DNA of 64,000 nucleotides from Escherichia phage UGJNEcP3: sequence record OV876907. One strand, 5' to 3'. The position numbers were made by a program, and so were the translations under genes. The first letter of the stretch is position 1, and the number at the start of each line of letters is the position of its first letter. Under the pieces are notes generated by a model, which saw nothing but the letters and a program-made list of their open reading frames with translations, was not told the origin of the DNA and made no database searches. Below, piece after piece: positions 193 to 17,057 of this stretch.

Positions 193-846
193 TTAAAACT
201 TACAAGATTTGATAATTTCAATGAACAATTTACGAGCTTCTAAATTATCGATTATAAGAATTTTCTTATAAGCATTTAATTTAGTCGAATACTTAGACCA
301 AACAAGGTCGTTGGTCTGTTCATCATGTTTATTTATTATATCCATAAATGAATCAAGCAAAATAAACGTTTCGAACGAAATAACATTCGATTGAAGGAGC
401 TTAAAAATATAGCTCGAGTTAACTTTTTTATTATAATCAAAAATTTCAGAAAGCGCTTGAACTTCCACTTTCTTACTGAAATAATAGATGTTTTTGATAT
501 CATCCTCAAAAACTTGTTTTATTCTTTTAAGTCTACCAATGTATTCTCGGTAAAAGACTAAGGCGTCAGCATCACTGATGTCGCCAATCCATGCGTCTTG
601 GTTAGCTACCAAGTTACTCATGAAGATAAGAGCAAGCTCTTTCAAAGTGTATTTATCACTCAATTTCTCAAAGAAATATTTGTCGCGACGTTTTTGATAA
701 GCCGTATCAGAGATTCGCATGACCCAGTTATATTTTATAACGTCGTATTTGGCGTTGAAGTGATGCTTTAACATCAAATATAGGGAATATACACTTTTGC
801 CATTCACCATACGGTTATTGTTTGGTGGCATGCGAATCTTAATCAT
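193..846 (-). CDS. 59: gp59 helicase-loading protein
   Basis: 217 aa; near-collinear with T4 gp59 as recalled (MIKxRMP...YDVIKYNW...DAWIGDISDADALVFYREYIGRLK); ATGA overlap with gene 33. Confidence 0.9.
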   Translation of the reverse strand: MIKIRMPPNNNRMVNGKSVYSLYLMLKHHFNAKYDVIKYNWVMRISDTAYQKRRDKYFFEKLSDKYTLKELALIFMSNLVANQDAWIGDISDADALVFYREYIGRLKRIKQVFEDDIKNIYYFSKKVEVQALSEIFDYNKKVNSSYIFKLLQSNVISFETFILLDSFMDIINKHDEQTNDLVWSKYSTKLNAYKKILIIDNLEARKLFIEIIKSCKF

Positions 847-2414: not shown

Positions 2415-2422
2415 TATAAATA
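2415..2422 (+). promoter_or_regulatory. T4-type late promoter TATAAATA upstream of gene 34
   Basis: exact TATAAATA 33 bp upstream of gene 34 ATG. Confidence 0.7.
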
Positions 2423-2454: not shown

Positions 2455-5400
2455 ATGGCCGATATTTTAAAACCTGCCTTCCGTGCTACATCCGGACTCG
2501 ATGCTGCAGGCGAGAAAGTTATCAATGTTGCCAAAGCCGATTACAATGTATTAGACGACGGCGTCAACGTTGAATTCTTTATAGATGAGAACACCATCCA
2601 GGCGTACGACAAGACGCGCGGATATAAGAAAGGGTTTGCCGTAATCCATGACCAACGTATCTGGGTTGCTCAACGTGATATCGATGCTCCATCAGGAGCC
2701 TTTGTACCAGGTTATTGGACTGCTACCCGTACTGACCCTAAATGGATTACTGTAGCGTCTCCTACACGCCAACTGGCTTCCGGTGAATATATTGCAGTGG
2801 ATTCTGCTGCTAGCTTTACTACATTTACCCTGCCTCCTAACCCTACAGATGGCGATACCGTTGTAATTAAAGATATCGGTGGTCGTGTTGGTTATAACGA
2901 AATAAAGGTTCAGTCCAGTTCTGCTCCTGGCGGCGGTAACCAGAAAATTGTTCGTTTTGGTAATCAGTTTACTGAGACCTTAATTACGAAGCCTTTTTCT
3001 TATAACATGCTTATCTTTGCTAACCGTCTTTGGCATTTCTGGGAATCAGGTAACGAAGAACGTGGTATCCGTGTAGAACCTAACACCGCTCAGTTCCAAG
3101 CCCAAGCTGGTGATAACATCCTCCGTCGTTATACTTCAGGTGCAGTAATTAAGTTTACTCTTCCTAAGTATGCGAACCAAGGCGATATTATTAAAACCGC
3201 TGATATCGATGGTTTAGGAAGTAAATTCCATTTAATCGTTGAAACGTTTGATGCTTCGTCTGCATTAGGTAAACCCGGACAGCATAGCATGGAATTCCGT
3301 ACCTCCGGTGATGGATTCTTTGTTTATAACTCTACCGAAAAATTATGGTATGTTTGGGACGGTGACCTTAAAACCCGTTTACGTGTAATTCGCGATGATG
3401 TTGAACTCTTGGCTAACGAAAGTGTTATTGTTTTTGGCCCTAATAATACAACACCGCAGACGATTAATATCACATTACCTACAGGCGTAGCCCAGGGTGA
3501 TGTCGTTAAGATTGCTCTGAACTATCTCCGTAAAGCTCAGACGGTAAATATTAAGGCCGCTGTAGGAGATAAAATAGCTTCTTCGGTTCAATTGCTCCAG
3601 TTCCCTAAACGTTCTGAATATCCACCGGAAACCGAATGGGTATTGAATGACGTATTGACCTTTAATGGCAATATAAGTTATACTCCGGTTATTGAACTGA
3701 GTTATATCGAAGACACCACTACAGGTGGTAAATATTGGGTTGTTGCCCAGAACGTTCCTACTATAGAACGTGTAGATTCTAAAGATGATTTAACTCGTGC
3801 TCGTTTAGGTGTTATTGCGTTGGCTACGCAGACCCAAGCAAACGTCGACCATGAAAATAATCCTGAAAAAGAACTTGCAATTACTCCTCAGACTTTAGCT
3901 AATCGTGTAGCGACTGAATCTCGTCGTGGTATTGCTCGTATTGCTACTACTGCTCAGGTGAACCAGGATACAACCTTCGCATTCCAGGACGATTTGATTA
4001 TTTCTCCTAAGAAATTAAACGAACGTACTGCAACCGAAACTCGTCGTGGTGTCGCTGAAATTGCTACGCAAGTTGAAACTGATGCTGGTATAGATGATAC
4101 TACAATCATCACTCCTAAGAAGCTACAAGCGCGGCAGGGTTCGGAAAGTCTTTCAGGTATTGTAACATATACCTCTACCGTAGGAACCACTCCTGCGACT
4201 GCTAGGGACACCGTAGGTACTAACGTTTATAATAAGAACGTAGGCAATTTGGTTATTTCTCCTAAAGCACTTGACCAGTATAAAGCTACTCAAGTTCAAC
4301 AGGGTACAGTATATCTTTCCAACCAGTCTGAAGTTAACGCAGGTCAAACTGCAAGTGGATTCGCCAATAGTGCTGTTTCTCCTGAAACATTACATGCTCG
4401 TGTGGCTCTTGATACTCGTACAGGGTTAATTGAAATTGCTACGCAAACAGAGACTGATACTGGAACAGATTATACTCGTGCGGTAACGCCTAAGACGTTA
4501 AATGATAGGAAAGCTACGGAAGGATTGACTGGTATTGCTAGAATTGCAACACAGGTAGAATTTGATGCAGGTGTATTAGATAATGTTATTTCAACTCCGT
4601 TGAAAATTAAAACAAGATTTAATGATACTGCTAGAACTTCTGTCTCAGCAGCCAGTGGTTTGGTTGAATCAGGAACCTTATGGAACCATTATACACTAGA
4701 TATTAGAGAAGCAAATGAGACACAACGTGGCACTGCTCGCCTGGCAACCCAGACCGAAGTCAACGTTGGTACCGATGATAAAACTATCGTCACTCCTTTG
4801 AAATTGCATTCTAAAAAATCTACTGAAAGTTCTGAAGGTATTATTCGTGTTGCAACCAATACCGAAACAACCGCAGGAACTTCTAAAGTTTTGGCTGTAA
4901 GCCCTTCTGGTTTAAAATATGTAGTACAGACCGAAACTACTTGGGAAGCTACTGCACTTCGTCGTGGATTTGTTAAATTAACCGAAGGTGCTTTAACCTA
5001 TTCAGGAAATAAAGTTACTGGTTCTGGTGTTAAATTCAACTCAGGTACAGGCCTTTATGAGAACGATGATACTGTTCTGAACGCAGCGAACTATCCTAAA
5101 ACGGGTTATGCGGTTTCATCTTACGAGATGAATAAAACTTTACAGAACTTTTTACCCATAAATGCTACGGCTGTGAACTCCGAGAAATTGGATGGCCTGG
5201 ATTCACTTCAGTTCATTCGTAGAGACGTCGACCAAACGGTTAATGGTTCTTTAACCCTGACCAAACAATTGAACCTGGCGGCTCCTCTGGTGTCTTCTAG
5301 TACTGCTAATATTACTGGCAATACTATTTTAGGTTCTCTGGAAGTAACTGGAAATTCTACTTTTAAAAATGATGTATCTGTTAGCTCAGGTAAATCTATT

Positions 5401-6504
5401 AAATTTGTAGGACCGCAGTCAGGTGCCGGTACTTGGAACTCTCAAGGAGATACTTTAGCTCCGATTTTTGCCGAGATAAATTCGACCCCAGATGCCAAGT
5501 TCCATCCTATTGTTAAACAACGTTTAGGGCAAGGTACATTCTCTTTAGGCACTGTAAACGACGGAACTCGTGATTTTAAAATACATTATCTTCCATCGCC
5601 GGGTTCTTTAGAATCTTCCTACTGGACCTTTAATACGACTGGTGACTTTGCTGTTAATAGTGGTTCCATTAGTATTTCTAAGAATGCTAATATCACAGGT
5701 ATAACCACTTCTAACGGTGTTTCTACAACCACACTAAATGCTTCTGCTCTGTCTTCATTGCAAAACGTAACTACTTCAGGTACTATCGTTTCCACCGGAC
5801 AGGTATCGGCAAATAATGGTTTGGTTGCTCAAAAATACGTTCGTTCTGTTGGTGTTAAACCTACATTAGCATCCCAGGCCCCTACTGCAGAAACAGTTGG
5901 CTTCTGGTCTGTTGATATCAATGATTCGGCTACATTTAACCTGTTCCCGGGTTATTGGACGATGAAAACTAAACGTCAGGTTAATATCGATACGGTCCAA
6001 ACTAAACCTGCCGGTGTTTCTGATGAGATATGGAATGCTTCTGGTTGGTTGACAGAAACGGGTGCATTTAGTTCTCCGGCTATTCGTTATCGTAACGAAG
6101 ACGGTAGTTTTGGTGACGAAGTTCTCAGTACGTCAGGTCAGAAATTACGTGGTACTTGGTTTGATTATTCTGTTCGTGATAAGGAAGTTAAATATCCTGG
6201 TACGTTAACCCAGTTTGGTAATACGTTAGATTCATGCTATCAAGATTGGGTGTGTTATCCTACAGGGCTGAATGGCGGTACTATCCGTTATACCCGTACC
6301 TGGCAGAAAAATAAAAACGCATGGACTACATTCTCAATGGTCTATACGGCAGATAACCCTCCTTCTGCAGAAGATGTGGGTGCATTGCCTGCTGATAACG
6401 CTACAATGGGTAACATTACAATCCTCGATTGGTTGCGTATTGGTAACGTTCGCATTATTCCTGACCCAGTCACTAAATCTGTCAAGTTTGAGTGGATTGA
6501 ATAA
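2455..6504 (+). CDS. 34: long tail fibre proximal subunit gp34
   Basis: 1349 aa, first of four co-directional fibre genes after rnh; AAGGAAA SD; size and position as T4 gp34. Confidence 0.88.
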   Translation: MADILKPAFRATSGLDAAGEKVINVAKADYNVLDDGVNVEFFIDENTIQAYDKTRGYKKGFAVIHDQRIWVAQRDIDAPSGAFVPGYWTATRTDPKWITVASPTRQLASGEYIAVDSAASFTTFTLPPNPTDGDTVVIKDIGGRVGYNEIKVQSSSAPGGGNQKIVRFGNQFTETLITKPFSYNMLIFANRLWHFWESGNEERGIRVEPNTAQFQAQAGDNILRRYTSGAVIKFTLPKYANQGDIIKTADIDGLGSKFHLIVETFDASSALGKPGQHSMEFRTSGDGFFVYNSTEKLWYVWDGDLKTRLRVIRDDVELLANESVIVFGPNNTTPQTINITLPTGVAQGDVVKIALNYLRKAQTVNIKAAVGDKIASSVQLLQFPKRSEYPPETEWVLNDVLTFNGNISYTPVIELSYIEDTTTGGKYWVVAQNVPTIERVDSKDDLTRARLGVIALATQTQANVDHENNPEKELAITPQTLANRVATESRRGIARIATTAQVNQDTTFAFQDDLIISPKKLNERTATETRRGVAEIATQVETDAGIDDTTIITPKKLQARQGSESLSGIVTYTSTVGTTPATARDTVGTNVYNKNVGNLVISPKALDQYKATQVQQGTVYLSNQSEVNAGQTASGFANSAVSPETLHARVALDTRTGLIEIATQTETDTGTDYTRAVTPKTLNDRKATEGLTGIARIATQVEFDAGVLDNVISTPLKIKTRFNDTARTSVSAASGLVESGTLWNHYTLDIREANETQRGTARLATQTEVNVGTDDKTIVTPLKLHSKKSTESSEGIIRVATNTETTAGTSKVLAVSPSGLKYVVQTETTWEATALRRGFVKLTEGALTYSGNKVTGSGVKFNSGTGLYENDDTVLNAANYPKTGYAVSSYEMNKTLQNFLPINATAVNSEKLDGLDSLQFIRRDVDQTVNGSLTLTKQLNLAAPLVSSSTANITGNTILGSLEVTGNSTFKNDVSVSSGKSIKFVGPQSGAGTWNSQGDTLAPIFAEINSTPDAKFHPIVKQRLGQGTFSLGTVNDGTRDFKIHYLPSPGSLESSYWTFNTTGDFAVNSGSISISKNANITGITTSNGVSTTTLNASALSSLQNVTTSGTIVSTGQVSANNGLVAQKYVRSVGVKPTLASQAPTAETVGFWSVDINDSATFNLFPGYWTMKTKRQVNIDTVQTKPAGVSDEIWNASGWLTETGAFSSPAIRYRNEDGSFGDEVLSTSGQKLRGTWFDYSVRDKEVKYPGTLTQFGNTLDSCYQDWVCYPTGLNGGTIRYTRTWQKNKNAWTTFSMVYTADNPPSAEDVGALPADNATMGNITILDWLRIGNVRIIPDPVTKSVKFEWIE

Positions 6505-6512
6505 GAGGTATT

Positions 6513-7637
6513 ATGGAAAGATTTATGGCAGAATTTGGACAAGGATATGTCCAGGTTCCTACATTATCTGAAAACAATGCTGTAAGGTACAAACTTAGTA
6601 TAGCTGGTAGTTGTACTAAGTCTACCACAAAAGCATATGTTAAATTTCAAGATGGGGACTTCGGTCCCCAGAATTTTCAAAATGGATTAAATCTTATAGA
6701 AATAGACGTTAGTGCCGAACCTAAAGTGGTGGCTAACAAAACTTATAGTTTTACAAAAGATTTTGATGTTATCTCTGAAGCTTTTATTACTTACATAAAT
6801 TCAATACCTGCAAACAGAATAGTTTGTTTAGTATCTTCTGGTAGATTAAACGCTTCACAGAAACTTATTGATTGGTTCCGTGCAGCAGGAAGTACAGCAT
6901 TCCCGTCTAAATGGATGATAGAGCGATTTGAGCCGTCTTATTCGGCCTTTTACGTTTCTGGTAGAAATACCATAGTGATGGAACACGTCCTTTATAATGA
7001 TGGGGTGTTTGTTGAAGATGTTTCTACACCATTAGAAGTCGTTTTTGACGATATCAGTGATGTCGGCGGTACCGGATATCCTATAAGAATAGTAGAAGAT
7101 GAAAATACTTATCTAAGTAATGGTGGGGAGGAAATAAAACGTTTCCCTACGGATTCTCCTACCACTCCTTGTGCTGATTATAATATGAAGCCTGGGGAGT
7201 TCTTTTATCTTAAATTCCAAATGATGTGCGACCAGGAATTAAAAGATTCAGAAGGGACTTCTCAAATGTCTGTTAGATTTTTTGATTCTAATAGTGCTTT
7301 GACCGGTACTGTAAATATGGAAATCCCGACTAATTTCCCTGCCGGGTCTTGGATGACTTTTGAGCGAGTAATTGAAGTTCCTGCTAATACAGAAACATTT
7401 ACATTGTATGCAAGAAAAACAGTGGCCAGTGGAGGTGGTGGTGTACGCAATGTGATGTTTGGGGAAGTATCAGAGCCGGAATCACAACCTAAATCAGCTG
7501 AATTTGGTGTAAATGGTATTCGTATGAATTTCGGTACCGAAACTAAGAATATGGGTATTACTATAGCCCAGTTATACGATAAAACAGGTACTAAACCGGG
7601 GCAGGTTTGGGTATCTGAATTTAGAGAAAAATATTAA
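6513..7637 (+). CDS. 35: long tail fibre hinge/connector gp35
   Basis: 374 aa immediately after gene 34; size and position as T4 gp35. Confidence 0.8.
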   Translation: MERFMAEFGQGYVQVPTLSENNAVRYKLSIAGSCTKSTTKAYVKFQDGDFGPQNFQNGLNLIEIDVSAEPKVVANKTYSFTKDFDVISEAFITYINSIPANRIVCLVSSGRLNASQKLIDWFRAAGSTAFPSKWMIERFEPSYSAFYVSGRNTIVMEHVLYNDGVFVEDVSTPLEVVFDDISDVGGTGYPIRIVEDENTYLSNGGEEIKRFPTDSPTTPCADYNMKPGEFFYLKFQMMCDQELKDSEGTSQMSVRFFDSNSALTGTVNMEIPTNFPAGSWMTFERVIEVPANTETFTLYARKTVASGGGGVRNVMFGEVSEPESQPKSAEFGVNGIRMNFGTETKNMGITIAQLYDKTGTKPGQVWVSEFREKY

Positions 7638-7712: not shown

Positions 7713-8360
7713 ATGGCAGATTTAAAATTAGGTTCTACAGCAGGAGGTTCGGTATTATGGCACCAAGGTAATTTCCCCTTAACGCCTGTATCAAATGACC
7801 TTCTTTATAAAACATATAAAGTTTACACCGAGTATAATAAACCACAAGCAGTTGATAATGATTTCGTTTCAAAAGCCAACGGCGGTAATTATAAGAACAA
7901 CGTGTATTTTGAAAAAGGTTTGACCTTTAATGATACTAATGGATATGGTATTAAATTAGGAGCAAGAACAGCCGGAGCCCCGTTTACAGCTTCTTTCCGT
8001 ATTAAAGGTGCTTTTGGATACGAAACGGAAGACGGTACCCCGTTTATGATATTTGACCCAAATACAACAGTTGGTGCTAAACGTCTTACCGTAATGGGTG
8101 ATTCATTATTCCGACAAGTATATGATGAATCAGGTCGTGTATTCAGCCCAGGCAACACCCCTACTAAAGCACAAATTGGATTGCCGTTAGTAGATAACGC
8201 AAAACAGGTCCAAATAAATAATACTAATATGCAAACAATGACTGGAGTACTTGCGGCTCCTAACTTCATTTCATTAAATCCGGCCTCTGACGCAGGACAT
8301 GTTCCCCGTTTCGACCAGATTGTTATTAAAGATTCTATCCAAGATTTTGGTTATTATTAA
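7713..8360 (+). CDS. 36: long tail fibre distal connector gp36
   Basis: 215 aa between 35 and 37; size and position as T4 gp36. Confidence 0.8.
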   Translation: MADLKLGSTAGGSVLWHQGNFPLTPVSNDLLYKTYKVYTEYNKPQAVDNDFVSKANGGNYKNNVYFEKGLTFNDTNGYGIKLGARTAGAPFTASFRIKGAFGYETEDGTPFMIFDPNTTVGAKRLTVMGDSLFRQVYDESGRVFSPGNTPTKAQIGLPLVDNAKQVQINNTNMQTMTGVLAAPNFISLNPASDAGHVPRFDQIVIKDSIQDFGYY

Positions 8361-8368
8361 GAGGCATT

Positions 8369-11300
8369 ATGGCTACTTTAAAACAGATACAATTTAAAAG
8401 AAGTAAAGTAGCTGGTGTACGTCCTACGCCAGCGCAGTTGGCTGAAGGCGAGCTGGCTATTAACTTAAAAGACCGTTTGTTATTTACTAAAGATGATACC
8501 GGCGCCATCATCGACCTTGGCTTTGCTAAAGGCGGTAATATTGACGGTAACGTAGTTCATAAAGGAAATTATAATCAAACCGGTGATTATACCTTGAATG
8601 GTACTTTTACCCAAACAGGTGATTTTAATTTAACTGGTATTGCCAGAGTAACCCGTGACATAATTGCGGCAGGTCAAATTATGTCTGAAGGTGGCGAGCT
8701 TATTTCTAAGAGTTCTTCAACTTCTCATTTGAGATTCTTTGATGGTGCATCACGTGAACGTGGTATTATCTTTTCTCCTAATAATGCAGGTTTGACAACT
8801 CAGGTAGTTAATATCCGCGTTCAAGATTATGCTGCAGGAAGTGAAAGCACTTACGCGTTTTCAGGCAACGGCCTATTTACTTCACCTGAAGTATCAGCAT
8901 GGAAATCTATTTCGTCTCCACAAATTCTGACCGATAAAGTTATTACAAATGGTAAGAAAGAAGGTGATTATGATATCTATTCAATGGCCGATAATACTCC
9001 TTTGGCCGAAAGTGAAACAGCAATTAACCACCTACGTGTTATGCGAAATGCGGTAGGAGCTGGTGTATTCCATGAAGTAAAAGATAATGACGGTATCTCA
9101 TGGTATGCAGGCGATGGACTCGATGCATATCTTTGGTCGTTCACCTGGTCCGGTGGATTGAAAGCGGGTCATTCTATTGCTGTCGGTCTTCCGCACGGTT
9201 CTAAAAATTATTCAGAAATGGGGCCTGGCTCGATAGCTTTAGGTGATAACGACACCGGATTAAAATGGCACCAAGATGGTTATTTCCATACAGTAAACAA
9301 TGGGACAAGAACTTTCATCTACGGACCAGAAGAAACGCAAAGCCTTAGAAAAATGGTTATGGGTTATTCTCCGGATGGGATTAATATGACAGTCCCTCCA
9401 ACAGAAAACTATGCCCTGGCAACTGTAGTTACTTACCATGATAATAACGCCTTTGGTGATGGCCAAACTCTTTTAGGATATTATCAAGGTGGTAAGTACC
9501 ATCACTATTTCCGTGGTAAAGGCGCGACGAACATTAACACCGCTGGCGGTTTGTTAGTTACTCCAGGCAATATCGACGTGATTGGCGGTTTAATTAATAT
9601 CGACGGTCGCAGTAATGCTTCAACCTTACTGTTTAGTAGCTATACGTCTGGACAAAGCTCTGTCGATAATATGAATATACGCGTTTGGGGCGATACTTTT
9701 ACTACTGTAGGTGGTACTCGCAAAAACGTAATGGAAATATCTGATGCCACTAGCTGGATGCAATATATTCAACGAACAACTGCAGGTAAAGTCGAATCGG
9801 TTCTAAACGGCACCCAGATTGTTAATGAAAACTTGACCGTAGTAAAAAATGCTACATTTGATGGTACAATCAGCGCAGCAGGTGAAATCGCAACAAATGC
9901 AGTAAATGGCCTTCGTATTTGGAACGATGATTACGGTGCTATTTTCCGTCGTTCAGAAGGAAGTCTTCACATTATTCCTACTGCTTTTGGTGAAGGTAAA
10001 ACCGGAGATATTGGTCCACTTCGTCCATTTAGTATTGCTTTAGATACCGGTAAAGTTGTTATTCCTGACTTGGATTTATCCCATACCACTTTTGCAGAAA
10101 ACGGTTATATTAAATTTGGCGGACACGGCGCTGGTGCAGGCGGATATGATATTCAATACGTCCAAGCAGCTCCTATTTTCCAGGAAATCGATGATGATGC
10201 CGTAAGTAAATATTACCCAATTGTTAAGCAGAAATTCTTACAAGGAAAGGCTGTTTGGTCTTTAGGTACCGAAATTAATTCAGGGACATTTGTTATCCAT
10301 CATTTAAAAGAAGATGGGACCCAGGGCCATACCTCAAGATTTAATGCCGATGGTACAGTTAATTTCCCTGATAACGTGCAGGTTGGCGCTGGTGAAGCTA
10401 CTATTGCTCGTAATGGTAACATCTTCTCTGATATTTGGAAAGTATTTACCTCTGCCGGTGATATAACTAACATTCACGATGCTATTGCCTCTCGTGTTGC
10501 TAAAGAAGGCGACACGATGACTGGAAAATTGACTATTGCCGCTGCGGATGATGCTTTATTGATTAAAGCCCCAAATGCCAATAATAGTTCTCATATCCGT
10601 TCAGAAGTCGCTGGTGCTAATAGCTGGTTTGTTGGTAAAGGCGGTGAAAGTGATACGGTATCTTTTTATAACTACAAAACATCAACCGGTCTAGATTTGA
10701 GTGATAATGGAGTAATTTCATTTAATCCTAAATCATTTAATTTAGCTCAAATGAGTGAAAACCGTCTGTGGATTAATGGAACAAGATGGGTTGCTACAAA
10801 TCCAGGCGCTATTAGCGGACAATTCGCACTTGAGGCTCCTTTATTTGTAGAACACGGTGACCTGAATGGTAACGTTTATTATCCGATTGTTAAAGGCCGA
10901 AGTTCTTCTGCTGGGTTTGGGTACACGTCCTCCGTAGAGCTAGGTACTTTACGTTCAGGTACCGCAGCCTGGGCCACCGGTTGTATAATTGTTCGTTCAG
11001 CTGAAAATACACCAGAACAAGGACATCCTGCCGCGGTTTATCAATTTTTGTCCAACGGGCAGTTTAGTGCTCCCGGAAGAATTGTTTCTGGTTGGGCTGG
11101 TATTGGTGTTGGTGTTGAACCAGCTTGGACCACGCCATGTATTTCTATTGGTGACGCTGATACTGGTATCGTATGGGAATCCGATGGTATCTACAACCTT
11201 TATGCGAATGGACAAGGTGTATTCAGTATTCGTGCTGGACTTGCTCAAACATTCGGTAACGTAGCATTACACGTTAACGCAGGTATGTATGTTCGTGATA

Positions 11301-11647
11301 ACATTGATGTTAACGATGTTTATATCCGTTCTGATATTCGTTGTAAGTCAGAAATTAAGCTTATTAAGAACGCTCAAGAGAAATCTAAACTCTTAGGCGG
11401 CTATACTTATCTGCTTAAAAACTCTGTTACAGACGAAGTTAAACCATCTGCAGGTTTAATTGCTCAGGAAGTTCAAGAAGTATTACCTGAACTTGTTTCT
11501 GAAGATAAAGAGACCGGACTGCTTCGTTTGAACTATAACGGTATTATTGGTTTAAATACAGCTACTATCAACGAGCATACTGACGAAATCAAGGAATTGA
11601 AATCCGAAATTGCTGAGTTGAAAGCATTAATTAAATCATTATTATAA
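8369..11647 (+). CDS. 37: long tail fibre distal subunit gp37 with C-terminal intramolecular-chaperone-like domain
   Basis: 1092 aa; C-terminal ~120 aa ([10 protein letters not shown]...[15 protein letters not shown]...) resembles S74/endosialidase-type autocleaving chaperone domains (memory). Confidence 0.88.
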
Positions 11648-11651
11648 GAAA

Positions 11652-11665
11652 GGGCCTTCGGGCCC
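11652..11665 (+). promoter_or_regulatory. RNA hairpin GGGCC-UUCG-GGCCC between genes 37 and 38
   Basis: perfect stem with UUCG loop directly before the GGAGG SD of gene 38; no T-run. Confidence 0.4.
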
Positions 11666-11676
11666 TGGAGGTTTTT

Positions 11677-12456
11677 ATGGCAGTAGTAGGAATTCCTGGT
11701 TGGATTGGGACTTCGGCCGTCGCTGAAACCGGGCAAAGATGGATGTCGGCCGCTTCGAGGGAACTTCGTTTAGGAAACCCTTCATGGATGTCCCAATTCG
11801 CCGGCCGCTCAAGAGAAATTATTCACACACTTGGAGCAGACCATAACTTTAACGGTCAATGGTTTCGTGACCGTTGTTTTGAAGCCGGTGGTGCTCCTAT
11901 AGTGTTTAATATCACAGGCAACTTAGTATCATATACTAAAGATGTTCCGTTGTTCTTTATGTACGGTGATACCCCTAACGAATATGTTACTTTGAATATT
12001 CATGGTGGCGTTCATATGTGGGGCCGAGGTGGTAATGGTAGCGTAAATGGAAGCCCAGGCACTAATGGTGGCGACGTAATCCAAAATGATATTGGCGGAA
12101 GACTTCGCATTTGGAATTATGGTGTAATAGCCTCCGGTGGTGGTGGAGGTGGTGCAGTATCATTACAGAATAGTTGGCCTGCAAATTCTACCGCAGGTGG
12201 TGGAGGCGGTCGACCATTTGGTCTCGGCGGTGGTGGCGTTAATTGGCCTGGCGGCAATGCTAGTTATGACGGCCCAGGTGGTGGTGGTAATACAAGTCAA
12301 TTTGGCGGTGGTAATGGAGGTGATGCAGGTGGCGCTGGTGGCGACGGATGGGGCAATCACTTATCTAGATCTGGGGGTGGTGCTCCTGGTAGAGCAGTAT
12401 TCGGTTCCTCCCCATCATGGGGTTCTACAGGCACTATCTACGGCTCTTGGTTATAA
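11677..12456 (+). CDS. 38: T2-type glycine-rich receptor-binding adhesin gp38
   Basis: 259 aa; N-terminus [24 protein letters not shown] and polyglycine blocks as in T2/T6-type gp38 (memory). Confidence 0.85.
12127..12360 (+). repeat. GGT-rich polyglycine-coding low-complexity region inside gene 38
   Basis: runs of GGTGGTGG encoding GGGG(G) blocks separating short variable segments. Confidence 0.8.
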
Positions 12457-12472
12457 TACGAAAGTATTAAAT

Positions 12473-12480
12473 TATAAATA
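12473..12480 (+). promoter_or_regulatory. T4-type late promoter TATAAATA upstream of holin gene t
   Basis: exact TATAAATA ~20 bp upstream of t ATG. Confidence 0.7.
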
Positions 12481-12498: not shown

Positions 12499-13152
12499 AT
12501 GGAACCAAAAGTAGGATTTTCATTATCAGACCTACTTTTTGGACTTCTTGATAGAATTTTTAAAGATACTTCTTCCGGGAAAGTAGTTTTTTCCCGGGTC
12601 CTAGTCGTAATATTATTGTTCTTTATGGCATTAATTTGGTATAAAGGCGAGCATATTCTAAACTTTTACAAAGAGACAACTTATGCCTCTTATACTGAAA
12701 TGATTAGACAAGACCAGGACAATAGATTTAAAATTGCGGCTATCGAGCAGCTCCGAATAGTGCATTCTTCTTCAGGCGCAGACTTCACAGCAATATATTC
12801 TTTTAGACCAACCAACATGAATTATTTTGTGGACATGGTGGCTTATGAGGGTAAATTACCGGAAACGGTAGACGCAAAAAATACGGGAGGATTTCCGATT
12901 GACAAAACGTCAGTAGAGTATATGGCGGGAGTTAACGGGAACTATTTTGAATCAAGTACAGAAACTGTGTTCCTTCCTACAAAGAAGAAAACCCAATTCA
13001 CGTATATGTTCTCATGCCCGTTTTTTAATTTGGATAACATCTATGCCGGCTCGATATCATTATATTGGTATGATATCAAACCGGATTTAGGATTTCCTAG
13101 ACTTTCGTCTATGTGTGGTCAGGCCGGGAGGACATTAGGTCGAACTCGTTAA
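12499..13152 (+). CDS. t: holin T
   Basis: 217 aa; SxSDLLFGLLDRxFKD, one TM segment, C-terminal YAGxIxxYWY as in T4 holin (memory). Confidence 0.9.
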   Translation: MEPKVGFSLSDLLFGLLDRIFKDTSSGKVVFSRVLVVILLFFMALIWYKGEHILNFYKETTYASYTEMIRQDQDNRFKIAAIEQLRIVHSSSGADFTAIYSFRPTNMNYFVDMVAYEGKLPETVDAKNTGGFPIDKTSVEYMAGVNGNYFESSTETVFLPTKKKTQFTYMFSCPFFNLDNIYAGSISLYWYDIKPDLGFPRLSSMCGQAGRTLGRTR

Positions 13153-15576: not shown

Positions 15577-15681
15577 TTACTTTTTAAAGTGAGCTGCTAT
15601 TAAACCTATAGCTAGGCCTGTGGCCAGGCCTAGGATAATAGCAAAGATACAGAGTAACAAGAACTCGACTCCAAGGCTCAT
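15577..15681 (-). CDS. 34-aa hydrophobic micro-protein coupled to gene 52
   Basis: ATG overlaps gene 52 stop (ATGA); MSLGVEFLLLCIFAIILGLATGLAIGLIAAHFKK is one TM helix. Confidence 0.45.
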   Translation of the reverse strand: MSLGVEFLLLCIFAIILGLATGLAIGLIAAHFKK

Positions 15682-17057
15682 AGAGACTCCAAATCTTTAA
15701 CATACTCAGTTACAACATCAGTGGTTTTCCAATATTGATGCTCTTCTTTCTTAGCCTTGGCTTCGAGGGCCAGTTTCTTGGCTTCGTCAGAAGTGATATG
15801 GAAAATGTTCATGGCCACTAGTTTATCGGCATATTCGCCATAGACTTTATTACCGGTCAATTCTTCGGTTAAAACCTTACGGGTCTTACCTTGGATAACC
15901 ACTACACCATCAATAACATCTTTGATAAATGTGGCTTTAGCCAATGCTAGTTTGAAAGCTTCTTCGGTTTCGATGATTTTACCATCAATACGTTTTTGTA
16001 CAAAGGTCTTACGGACCTCAACGAAATCACGAATCAGTTCAACTACATCTTCGTAAACCTTAAGTTTACCTTTTTCATTAATGACGGTCAGGTTTTGTGA
16101 ACGACGTTCGATTAACCCGAAGTCCTTCATGAGTTTTTCGTGTTTCTTATCTTCATCGGTAGGCAATTCATATTCTTTACGAATCTTAACCTTGAAGCCA
16201 AAACCGTTCTCGTCACAGTCATCATCATATGTGATGTACCCTTTGTCTTCCAGAGGGTCTAATACCTTAGCCACATATGTTTCACGGTCATATTTGTATG
16301 GGATTTCCGTGATATGCATTTGGGTTCGAGATGTGAACTTATACGTTCCACGAATCTCATAACTACCTGGTTCAATTTCAACAACTTCACCTCGGAATTC
16401 AGGATAAGCCACTTTAGGCTTGGTTACTCGTTTTTCCTGAAGAACTTGCAATACAGCTTTCTTAACAGAATCAAAACTATGAGGAAGAATATTAGTTGCA
16501 TAACCAGTTGCAATACCGGAAATACCATTAAGAAGAACAGTAGGAATAATAGGCAGATAAAAAGCCGGTGGCTTATGTTCGACATCCGCATGAACCGGAG
16601 CATATTCTGTGTCCTTATAAACTTTTGCAAAGTTACTTCCGATACGAGCAAAAATATAACGAGAGGCTGCAGCCTTTTGAACCAATCGAGAACCGAAGTT
16701 ACCTTGACCGTCTAACAATGGATAGTTGTTGTTCCATGTGTTAGCCATCAAAGCCCCTGCTTCCTGAGCAGAACCTTCACCATGGTGATATCCAAGGTCG
16801 GCTACGCCACCAGCAATAGAAGCTAGTTTGTGGAATTTTTCTTTATTACCACGAGCCATATCAAGACAACGAGCAACTACAAAACGTTGTACAGGTTTAA
16901 AGCCGTCAATCATATTTGGAATGGCTCGGTTTTCGACAGTATACATTGCATAAGCCAATGCTTCGTTGTCGATAATACTTTTTAAGTCACGACGAGTGAA
17001 AGAATCATCGTAAACATCTAAAGCCTGTTTAAAAAGGGTATCAATTACATCAGCCAT
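15678..17057 (-). CDS. 52: DNA topoisomerase II medium subunit gp52
   Basis: 459 aa; GyrA-type N-terminus (AMYTVENRAIPNMIDGFKPVQR), T4 gp52 size and position. Confidence 0.9.
   Translation of the reverse strand: MADVIDTLFKQALDVYDDSFTRRDLKSIIDNEALAYAMYTVENRAIPNMIDGFKPVQRFVVARCLDMARGNKEKFHKLASIAGGVADLGYHHGEGSAQEAGALMANTWNNNYPLLDGQGNFGSRLVQKAAASRYIFARIGSNFAKVYKDTEYAPVHADVEHKPPAFYLPIIPTVLLNGISGIATGYATNILPHSFDSVKKAVLQVLQEKRVTKPKVAYPEFRGEVVEIEPGSYEIRGTYKFTSRTQMHITEIPYKYDRETYVAKVLDPLEDKGYITYDDDCDENGFGFKVKIRKEYELPTDEDKKHEKLMKDFGLIERRSQNLTVINEKGKLKVYEDVVELIRDFVEVRKTFVQKRIDGKIIETEEAFKLALAKATFIKDVIDGVVVIQGKTRKVLTEELTGNKVYGEYADKLVAMNIFHITSDEAKKLALEAKAKKEEHQYWKTTDVVTEYVKDLESL

Follow-up and report, generated by a model that had tools for sequence, protein, structure and literature searches.

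The 64,000-nucleotide stretch of Escherichia phage UGJNEcP3 analysed here (OV876907; the window) carries, at 8369-12456, the genes for the distal subunit of the long tail fibre (gene 37) and for a tail-fibre tip adhesin of the T2 type (gene 38), whose ORFs (Table 1) agree exactly with the coordinates given in the initial annotation. Gene 38 is placed directly 3′ of gene 37 and ahead of the holin gene t, as in T2, T6 and S16. The order g34-g35-g36-g37-g38-t, taken from ORFs and annotated records, is the same in these three phages and in T4. The whole of the 8369-12456 stretch is 100% identical to that of Escherichia phage UGJNEcP4 (OV877765.1), a Dhakavirus, in whose record the two genes are labelled "long tail fiber protein distal subunit" and "tail fiber protein; host specificity"; a literature search found no paper on UGJNEcP4. 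The module is very probably the distal half of a T-even (genus Dhakavirus) long-tail-fibre operon with a tip of the T2/T6/S16 type, and this high confidence covers the assembly and binding events proposed below.

Table 1. Features of the gene 37-gene 38 module (window positions; residue numbers refer to gp37 or gp38).
Feature	Residues, size	Position	Strand	Basis
Gene 37, long tail fibre distal subunit	1092 aa, 117.1 kDa precursor	8369..11647	+	ORF; PHROG 1699; OV877765.1 annotation
Gp34_trimer-like domain (gp37)	451-556	9719..10036	+	Pfam PF21446, E 9e-10
gp37_trimer region (gp37)	729-794	10553..10750	+	Pfam PF20744, E 1.2e-6, 28.9 bits vs cut-off 21.7
Mature fibre distal tip ending DVYIR, predicted gp38 docking surface (gp37)	922-987	11132..11329	+	Aligned with S16 gp37 tip, 6F45_A
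Predicted autocleavage site (gp37)	R987/S988	11327..11332	+	Aligned with S16 and fPS phage sites; 3GUD chain start
Peptidase_S74 intramolecular chaperone (gp37)	988-1092, 11.6 kDa	11330..11644	+	Pfam PF13884; invariant residues; profile matches
Ser codon (gp37)	Ser988	11330-11332	+	Predicted catalytic pair
Lys codon (gp37)	Lys993	11345-11347	+	Predicted catalytic pair
GC-rich hairpin AGGGCCTTCGGGCCCT		11651..11666	+	Between gene 37 stop and gene 38 Shine-Dalgarno (GGAGG)
Gene 38, T2-type tail-fibre tip adhesin	259 aa, 26.1 kDa	11677..12456	+	ORF; Pfam GP38; Gp38_N; PHROG 2056; PDB matches
N-terminal attachment domain with Trp9/Trp22/Trp37 (gp38)	1-42	11677..11802	+	Pfam PF21721
Conserved beta-helix part (gp38)	47-115	11815..12021	+	Low column entropy, 0.53 bits; naming after PMC12032242
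Specificity domain, glycine-rich motifs and hypervariable segments (gp38)	116-241	12022..12399	+	Entropy profile, 19 adhesins
Loop 1, SVNGSPGTN (gp38)	122-130	12040..12066	+	Mean entropy 1.58 bits vs 0.18 for flanking GRGGNG
Loop 2 (gp38)	160-173	12154..12195	+	Mean entropy 1.76 bits vs 0.05 for the G6 run before it
Loop 3 (gp38)	188-209	12238..12303	+	Mean entropy 1.4-1.9 bits outside partly conserved GGGG (0.91 bits)
Loop 4 (gp38)	222-232	12340..12372	+	Mean entropy 1.47 bits

The PHROG 1699 profile, "long tail fiber protein distal subunit", covers gp37 residues 1-1092 (E 0). PDB matches within the protein are to T4 gp34 (4UXE and 5NXF; residues 420-567, E ~1e-13) and to the S16 gp37 construct (6F45_A; residues 922-1091, E 2.5e-28). 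The extreme C-terminus (988-1043 of 1092) matches Pfam PF13884 with an E-value of 9e-12 and a score of 45.5 bits (cut-off 22), over profile positions 1-57 of 58. The initial annotation, whose quoted peptides are found at residues 988-997 and 1029-1043, had described a terminal intramolecular chaperone segment of about 120 residues; the domain is borne out, while its length from the catalytic serine to the end is 105 residues. The Ser-Lys dyad on which that description was made to depend is present as Ser988 and Lys993, in the motif DVYIR/SDIRCK with S-D-x-x-x-K spacing, and S988, D989, R991 and K993 are invariant in the alignment of 12 gp37 sequences (12/12). The motif aligns with SDRRIK in 6F45_A, SDERLK in 8JOV, SDERHK at the start of 3GUD and ADLRAK in 7DC3. 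The last three structures were reached with a six-sequence profile of the domain, at E-values of 2.4e-9 for 7DC3 (autoprocessing domain of MYRF), 2.7e-7 for 8JOV (a tail fibre) and 2e-3 for 3GUD (chaperone domain of phage GA-1); the 3GUD chain begins at the aligned serine. A PDB search with the single sequence returned S16 gp37 and a weak MYRF match only. The endosialidase chaperone domain was not reached at E <= 10 in these PDB searches; the link to endosialidases comes from the Pfam model only. Residue 992, a non-catalytic position, is an unusual cysteine (SDIRCK) in place of the L, I or V of relatives.

The cleavage-site prediction suggested in the initial annotation places the cut at R987/S988, by alignment with the S16 site. 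S16 gp37 is cleaved at DLNVS^SDRRIKK, other T-even phages being aligned at DVYIR^SD and the fPS phage site at DVYIR^SDGRLKI, and removal of the S16 chaperone domain exposes the docking surface for gp38; where the strand before the cut is DVYIR, it is this beta-strand that is described as making the docking tip (PMC7917993). The predicted cut between Arg987 and Ser988 would release 105 residues (11.6 kDa), and by analogy with S16 the gp38 docking surface of UGJNEcP3 would lie at gp37 residues 922-987.

The hairpin between the two genes keeps its stem with other bases in JS10 (GGGGC..GCCCC) and Bas46 (GGGGG..CCCCC). A role as an intrinsic terminator was considered but is not supported: although a pattern scan picks out the site on either strand, terminator-like sites are as numerous as shuffling predicts. 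The fold itself is no better than that of shuffled sequences (z -1.38).

Gene 38 encodes a protein that matches Pfam GP38 (PF05268; E 5e-82, 275.3 bits, all 218 profile positions covered), Gp38_N (PF21721; E 8e-21, 74.2 bits) and, at E 1e-108, the PHROG 2056 family of "tail fiber protein; host specificity"; the cut-off of both Pfam models is 25 bits. Since the GP38 match and the Peptidase_S74 match of gp37 both lie above curated cut-offs, the two family assignments are beyond chance. Among solved structures, gp38 matches the OmpC-binding PP01 adhesin (9V85; E 3e-74, 65% identity) and S16 gp38 (6F45_D; E 3.5e-51, 51% identity), and from these identities we infer a polyglycine type II sandwich fold. 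The initial annotation had called gp38 an adhesin of the T2 rather than the T4 type and had proposed aligning it with the T2, T6 and S16 proteins; the alignment is end to end, at 53, 68 and 51% identity, respectively, and BLASTP found no similarity to T4 gp38 (best E 1.1), a protein that itself matches no Pfam family.

Three tryptophans of the attachment domain (W9, W22 and W37) are invariant in 19/19 adhesin sequences; such residues have been described as "prongs" entering pockets in gp37 (PMC7917993, PMC12032242). The IMG/VR scan for gp38 yielded 13 loci only, to which annotated phage records were added. By alignment, the counterpart of the specificity domain in the S16 and PP01 adhesins is their polyglycine domain, and glycine makes up 26% of the whole protein and 37% of residues 110-259. 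The four or five polyglycine blocks first described correspond to four runs of at least four glycines (154-159, 174-178, 184-187 and 201-204) and two GGG runs (210-212 and 233-235). Conserved and variable segments alternate: across the 19 adhesins, entropy is 0.05-0.9 bits in the glycine blocks against 1.4-1.9 bits in the loops. This layout fits the published five glycine-rich motifs and four hypervariable segments (PMC3157838, PMC12032242), the loop and motif boundaries in Table 1 being our own delineation from the entropy profile.

The tip most closely resembles characterised systems of the T2 type. The S16 gp37-gp38 tip complex (PDB 6F45; Dunne et al., 2018, as cited in PMC12892980 and PMC7917993) shares the gene pair and its order, the C-terminal Peptidase_S74 domain of gp37 with S-D-x-R-x-K, and the attachment domain, beta-helix and polyglycine domain of gp38. 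S16 differs in belonging to the genus Gelderlandvirus, in binding Salmonella OmpC, in its tip before the cut (DLNVS, against DVYIR here), in the length of its chaperone domain (113 against 105 aa), and in its gp38 N-domain allele (MAVQG--PWVGSS) and loops. In T2 and T6, gp37 likewise ends in a Peptidase_S74 domain and gp38 carries the same glycine-rich motifs, but the loops differ, the receptors are FadL and Tsx, respectively (PMC8594841), and the gp37 shafts are just 28-35% identical overall. The S74 domains of endosialidase, the GA-1 neck appendage (3GUD) and MYRF (7DC3) also occupy the extreme C-terminus of a trimeric fibre and align over the whole PF13884 profile, including the Ser-Lys pair. 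Similarity to these domains from outside the T-even phages is distant (E 2e-3 to 2e-9 with the profile), and the cleavage predicted here, unlike theirs, would also make a docking site for a separate adhesin. T4 shares the locus, the gp34-36 partners and a Gp34_trimer-like segment in gp37, whereas its gp37 ends in Collar and Phage_fiber repeats and binds the receptor itself, and its gp38 is an unrelated chaperone.

Several GenBank records, among them those of Bp7 (HQ829472), JS98 (EF469154), PhAPEC2 and Shf125875, do annotate homologues of gene 38 as a "distal long tail fiber assembly catalyst", which would make gp38 a T4-type chaperone outside the virion and leave receptor binding to the gp37 tip. 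These labels are inherited gene names. The gp37 of UGJNEcP3 is without the T4-type Collar and Phage_fiber tip, gp38 matches the adhesin family and solved adhesins and shows no T4 gp38 similarity, and the NCBI note on T4 gp38 calls the "gp38" of the T2 subfamily unrelated, and the adhesin. The T4-type identity is thus rejected as extremely improbable. Hardly more probable is a degenerate, uncleaved S74-like domain that stays in the mature fibre and aids receptor binding or gp38 attachment, as might be read from the cysteine at position 992 and from the fact that cleavage in UGJNEcP3 is a prediction: the catalytic Ser and Lys are intact and invariant within the SDxRxK context, the domain is 92-100% identical to its counterpart in several relatives, and the S16 homologue is cleaved to expose its docking surface. 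No evidence contradicting a cleaved gp37 tipped by a gp38 adhesin was found.

In the proposed mechanism, gp37 (1092 aa) would trimerise with the aid of its own C-terminal chaperone domain, after which the Ser988-Lys993 pair would cut at Arg987/Ser988. Loss of the 105-aa fragment would expose a flat tip of DVYIR strands, on which one gp38 would dock through residues 1-42 and their three tryptophans. The remainder of gp38 would fold into a beta-helix and a polyglycine sandwich, the latter made up of the conserved glycine-rich motifs. The four variable loops would project from it and contact their receptor, a porin of the outer membrane and most probably OmpF.

The receptor assignment comes from the closest receptor-tested relatives. 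Their gp38 adhesins are of the same subtype with near-identical loops, at amino acid identities of 95% for AlbertHofmann (Bas47), 92% for ChristianSchoenbein (Bas46) and 86.5% for FL31; Shf125875 (94%) is also of this subtype, and the genus of all four (Mosigvirus for Bas47, Bas46 and Shf125875) differs from the Dhakavirus assignment here. Bas46 and Bas47 are listed as OmpF-dependent (BASEL supplementary table), while FL31 shows a one-log drop only, on ompF and tolC mutants (PMC12032242). Because all three need OmpF, FL31 weakly, and gp38 adhesins that are close in sequence have been concluded to share their receptor (PMC12032242), OmpF is the likely receptor. Identity is lower to the adhesins of T6 (Tsx; 68%), PP01 (OmpC; 65%) and T2 (53%). 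With the same architecture, the primary receptor might nevertheless be another porin or transporter used by gp38 adhesins (Tsx, OmpA, OmpC or FadL), or binding might be confined to certain OmpF alleles. Residues 116-259 of gp38 differ from these relatives by 11-12 substitutions, mostly in loops, where 8 of the 11 differences from Bas46 and Bas47 fall, and since small loop changes are reported to alter the receptor of such adhesins (PMC12032242), the receptor is the weakest link of the model. The small effect seen with FL31 and the similar loop 2 of the FadL-dependent T2 (AASLKNSYPTN) point the same way. Set against the OmpF dependence of the three closest tested relatives, a primary receptor other than OmpF appears unlikely, at perhaps a quarter of the probability.

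The module is a mosaic whose visible exchange points fall within conserved segments and outside the loops. The loops had been put forward both as determinants of specificity and as recombination hot spots; the former role is retained, whereas crossovers in gp38 have been placed in the conserved glycine-rich motifs and their flanks (PMC3157838), in line with the breakpoints seen here. DNA identity to the relatives with this adhesin subtype is 55-65% in the neighbouring holin gene against 75-90% in the gp38 specificity domain, and Bas46 has another gp37 C-end and another gp38 N-domain allele. An OmpF-type specificity domain may have moved between Dhakavirus and Mosigvirus, the units of exchange being not the gene but, on one side, the gp37 C-end together with the gp38 N-domain and, on the other, the gp38 beta-helix together with the specificity domain. 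The loop residues that differ from Bas46 and Bas47 (S122, S126, P168/A169, S171, G199, G203, N205 and A220) may adapt the adhesin to different OmpF alleles; this scenario is tentative, its chances falling a little short of even.

The T2-type tip architecture is already known for the family and has been described in detail for T2, T6, S16 and PP01, so that the value of the present module is practical rather than an extension of how this tip system is understood. A gp38 of the OmpF-binding subtype helps to predict host range and routes of resistance (loss or variation of ompF) where such a phage is used in cocktails, and the mapped domain borders are sensible junctions for engineered adhesin swaps.

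As the initial annotation had placed it, the host-range module of Escherichia phage UGJNEcP3 coincides exactly with two adjoining plus-strand ORFs, genes 37 and 38, within the order g34-g35-g36-g37-g38-t; asiA and motA come after the holin gene t on the opposite strand. The 4088-bp g37-g38 stretch is 100% identical to that of Escherichia phage UGJNEcP4 (OV877765.1; Straboviridae, Tevenvirinae, Dhakavirus), where the two genes are labelled "long tail fiber protein distal subunit" and "tail fiber protein; host specificity". The module is thus already public, with a correct annotation. Upstream, the gp35 ORF could start at 6513 (374 aa); the GenBank start lies 12 bases further, at window 6525 (370 aa). 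Residues 57-130 of gp35, its hinge connector (window 6681-6902), match Pfam ILEI (PF15711; E 1.5e-6, 29.1 bits, cut-off 27), a FAM3/ILEI-type domain elsewhere known from animal proteins, and the link to gp35 has reportedly been described before under the name "GG domain". The minus-strand gene at window 15678-17057 is named "gyrA, DNA gyrase subunit A" in GenBank; annotations in relatives give its homologue as the medium subunit of topoisomerase II (T4 gp52), which makes the GenBank name misleading.

Features of the tail-fibre region of UGJNEcP3 (window coordinates unless residues are stated)
Feature	Position	Strand	Remarks
g34	2455-6504		first of the g34-t order
g35	6513-7637		between g34 and g36
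g36	7713-8360		directly before g37
gene 37	8369-11647	+	ORF, 1092 aa
gene 38	11677-12456	+	ORF, 259 aa
holin gene t	12499-13152		after g38
TATAAATA	2415-2422		33 bp upstream of gene 34
TATAAATA	12473-12480		19 bp upstream of t
GC-rich hairpin, UUCG loop, AGGGCCTTCGGGCCCT	11651-11666		between gene 37 stop codon and gene 38 ribosome-binding site
Switch of nearest relative (DNA)	~11280		just upstream of segment encoding last mature-tip residues
Switch of nearest relative (DNA)	~11820		end of gp38 attachment domain
Switch of nearest relative (DNA), for JS98	~12000-12060		adjoins first glycine-rich motif
gp38 variable segments	residues 122-130, 160-173, 188-209, 222-232		entropy, 19 adhesins

The gp37 C-terminus carries a Peptidase_S74 domain ("Chaperone of endosialidase") at residues 988-1043, covering the whole Pfam profile at 45.5 bits (cut-off 22), and the peptides quoted in the initial annotation lie at 988-997 and 1029-1043. 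Residues 922-1091 align with the S16 gp37 construct (PDB 6F45, E 2.5e-28). The same C-terminal Pfam domain is found in the gp37 of T2, T6 and S16, used as controls, whereas T4 gp37 has Collar and Phage_fiber repeats in its place. The expected Ser-Lys dyad is intact: S988, D989, R991 and K993 are invariant in all 12 aligned gp37 proteins, whose identity elsewhere is only 28-91%. A profile built from six diverse T-even chaperone domains found three more solved structures: the MYRF autoprocessing domain (7DC3, E 2.4e-9), with ADLRAK at the aligned position; a tail fibre (8JOV, E 2.7e-7), with SDERLK; and the chaperone domain of the neck appendage of phage GA-1 (3GUD, E 2e-3), where the aligned SDERHK opens the chain. 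In S16, autocleavage at DLNVS^SDRRIKK removes the final 113 residues; DVYIR^SD of other T-even phages has been aligned to this site, and cleavage lays bare the gp38 docking surface (PMC7917993). Since UGJNEcP3 reads DVYIR^SDIRCKS, the predicted cut is R987|S988, which would free 105 residues (11.6 kDa), slightly fewer than the ~120 first proposed for this chaperone-like end, and leave a mature chain of 105.5 kDa. Further inside gp37, residues 420-567 (window 9628-10069) share homology with the trimerisation region at the C-terminus of gp34, the proximal fibre protein (PDB 4UXE and 5NXF, E ~1e-13; Pfam Gp34_trimer), a segment also present in T2, T6 and T4 gp37.

The assignment of gp38 to the T2 type is borne out by end-to-end alignment with T2 (53%), T6 (68%) and S16 (51%) gp38; no similarity to the chaperone-type gp38 of T4 was detectable. 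It matches Pfam GP38 (E 5e-82, full profile) and Gp38_N (E 8e-21), PHROG 2056 "tail fiber protein; host specificity" (E 1e-108), the receptor-binding domain in PDB 9V85 (E 3e-74, 65% identity over 217 positions), identified as PP01 gp38 via PMC12892980, and S16 gp38 (6F45_D, E 3.5e-51). Glycine makes up 37% of residues 110-259, with four runs of at least four glycines and two GGG runs. Across 19 adhesins, W9, W22 and W37 of the attachment domain are invariant, the glycine blocks are near-invariant (mean column entropy 0.05-0.9 bits) and the four segments between them are the most variable parts (1.4-1.9 bits). This alternation is the one already published for such adhesins, in which four hypervariable segments are set between five glycine-rich motifs (Trojet et al., PMC3157838; Lutz et al., PMC12032242). 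The gp38 of phage Bp7 as annotated (L023:4091-4882, NC_019500.1) matches the UGJNEcP3 adhesin until about residue 221 and continues into unrelated sequence (GGEDGIITYLD...) with a later end, an apparent frameshift either of the GenBank entry or of the phage itself.

The genes flanking the module share 93-95% identity with many Dhakavirus genomes; for the module itself, the best non-self match is 87% and most are ~80-83%. Within gp37 the closest relative changes from segment to segment: pEC-M719-6WT.2 is 87-98% identical throughout, but only 65-72% at residues 421-540. For an IMG/VR genome (L006), identity is 85-97% over residues 301-480, falls to 27-45% over 481-960 and rises again to 90-100% over 961-1092. 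Identity to JS10 changes from 45-63% upstream of ~11820 to 88-98% downstream. The initial annotation saw the loops as likely recombination hot spots; the breakpoints instead lie in conserved sequence outside them, in agreement with the published view of crossovers in glycine-rich motifs and their flanks (PMC3157838). Among the relatives' loci L006-L024, the gp37 C-end and gp38 N-domain alleles always co-occur (window 11280-11812), as three pairs, which fits their physical contact and adjacency; the exchange unit therefore spans the gene boundary. In DNA, the gp38 specificity domain shares 75-90% identity with Mosigvirus copies and the next gene, t, only 55-65%, which argues that the adhesin type was exchanged between genera.

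The intergenic hairpin is kept in relatives, with stems of other bases, still complementary, in JS10 and in Bas46 (ChristianSchoenbein, a Mosigvirus); its fold energy is no better than that of shuffled sequence (z -1.38). Candidate roles include mRNA stability, translational coupling and partial termination. The stretch from gene 34 to gene 38 has no copy of TATAAATA, the T4 late-promoter consensus, and so may be transcribed as a single late unit. Ahead of t, the motif is invariant in 8/8 aligned relatives; the window holds five, not above chance.

The closest adhesins with experimental receptor data are those of Bas47 (AlbertHofmann, also a Mosigvirus; 95% identity), Bas46 (92%) and FL31 (86.5%). 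The BASEL supplementary table lists OmpF for Bas47, as the primary receptor, and for Bas46; FL31 shows a drop of no more than one log on ompF and tolC mutants, and closely related gp38 adhesins were concluded to share a receptor (both PMC12032242). OmpF is therefore the best guess for UGJNEcP3 and a fairly probable one, with the caveats that its gp38 differs from Bas46 and Bas47 at 11 places in residues 116-259, 8 of them in loops (39% of the region), and that small loop changes can shift the receptor according to the literature.

By comparison with S16, T2, T6 and PP01, gp37 would trimerise with the help of its own chaperone domain and cut itself at R987|S988; one gp38 would then dock on the DVYIR tip via its tryptophans, display four loops on a polyglycine sandwich and bind a porin. 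The sequence itself shows gene order, mosaicism, an intact and conserved catalytic pair, the conserved/variable alternation and the family of each protein; the module belongs to two well-characterised families and passes every test of membership at this level. The initial interpretation holds overall, with small corrections to domain length and crossover position. What is added is solely the receptor prediction and the map of exchange borders.
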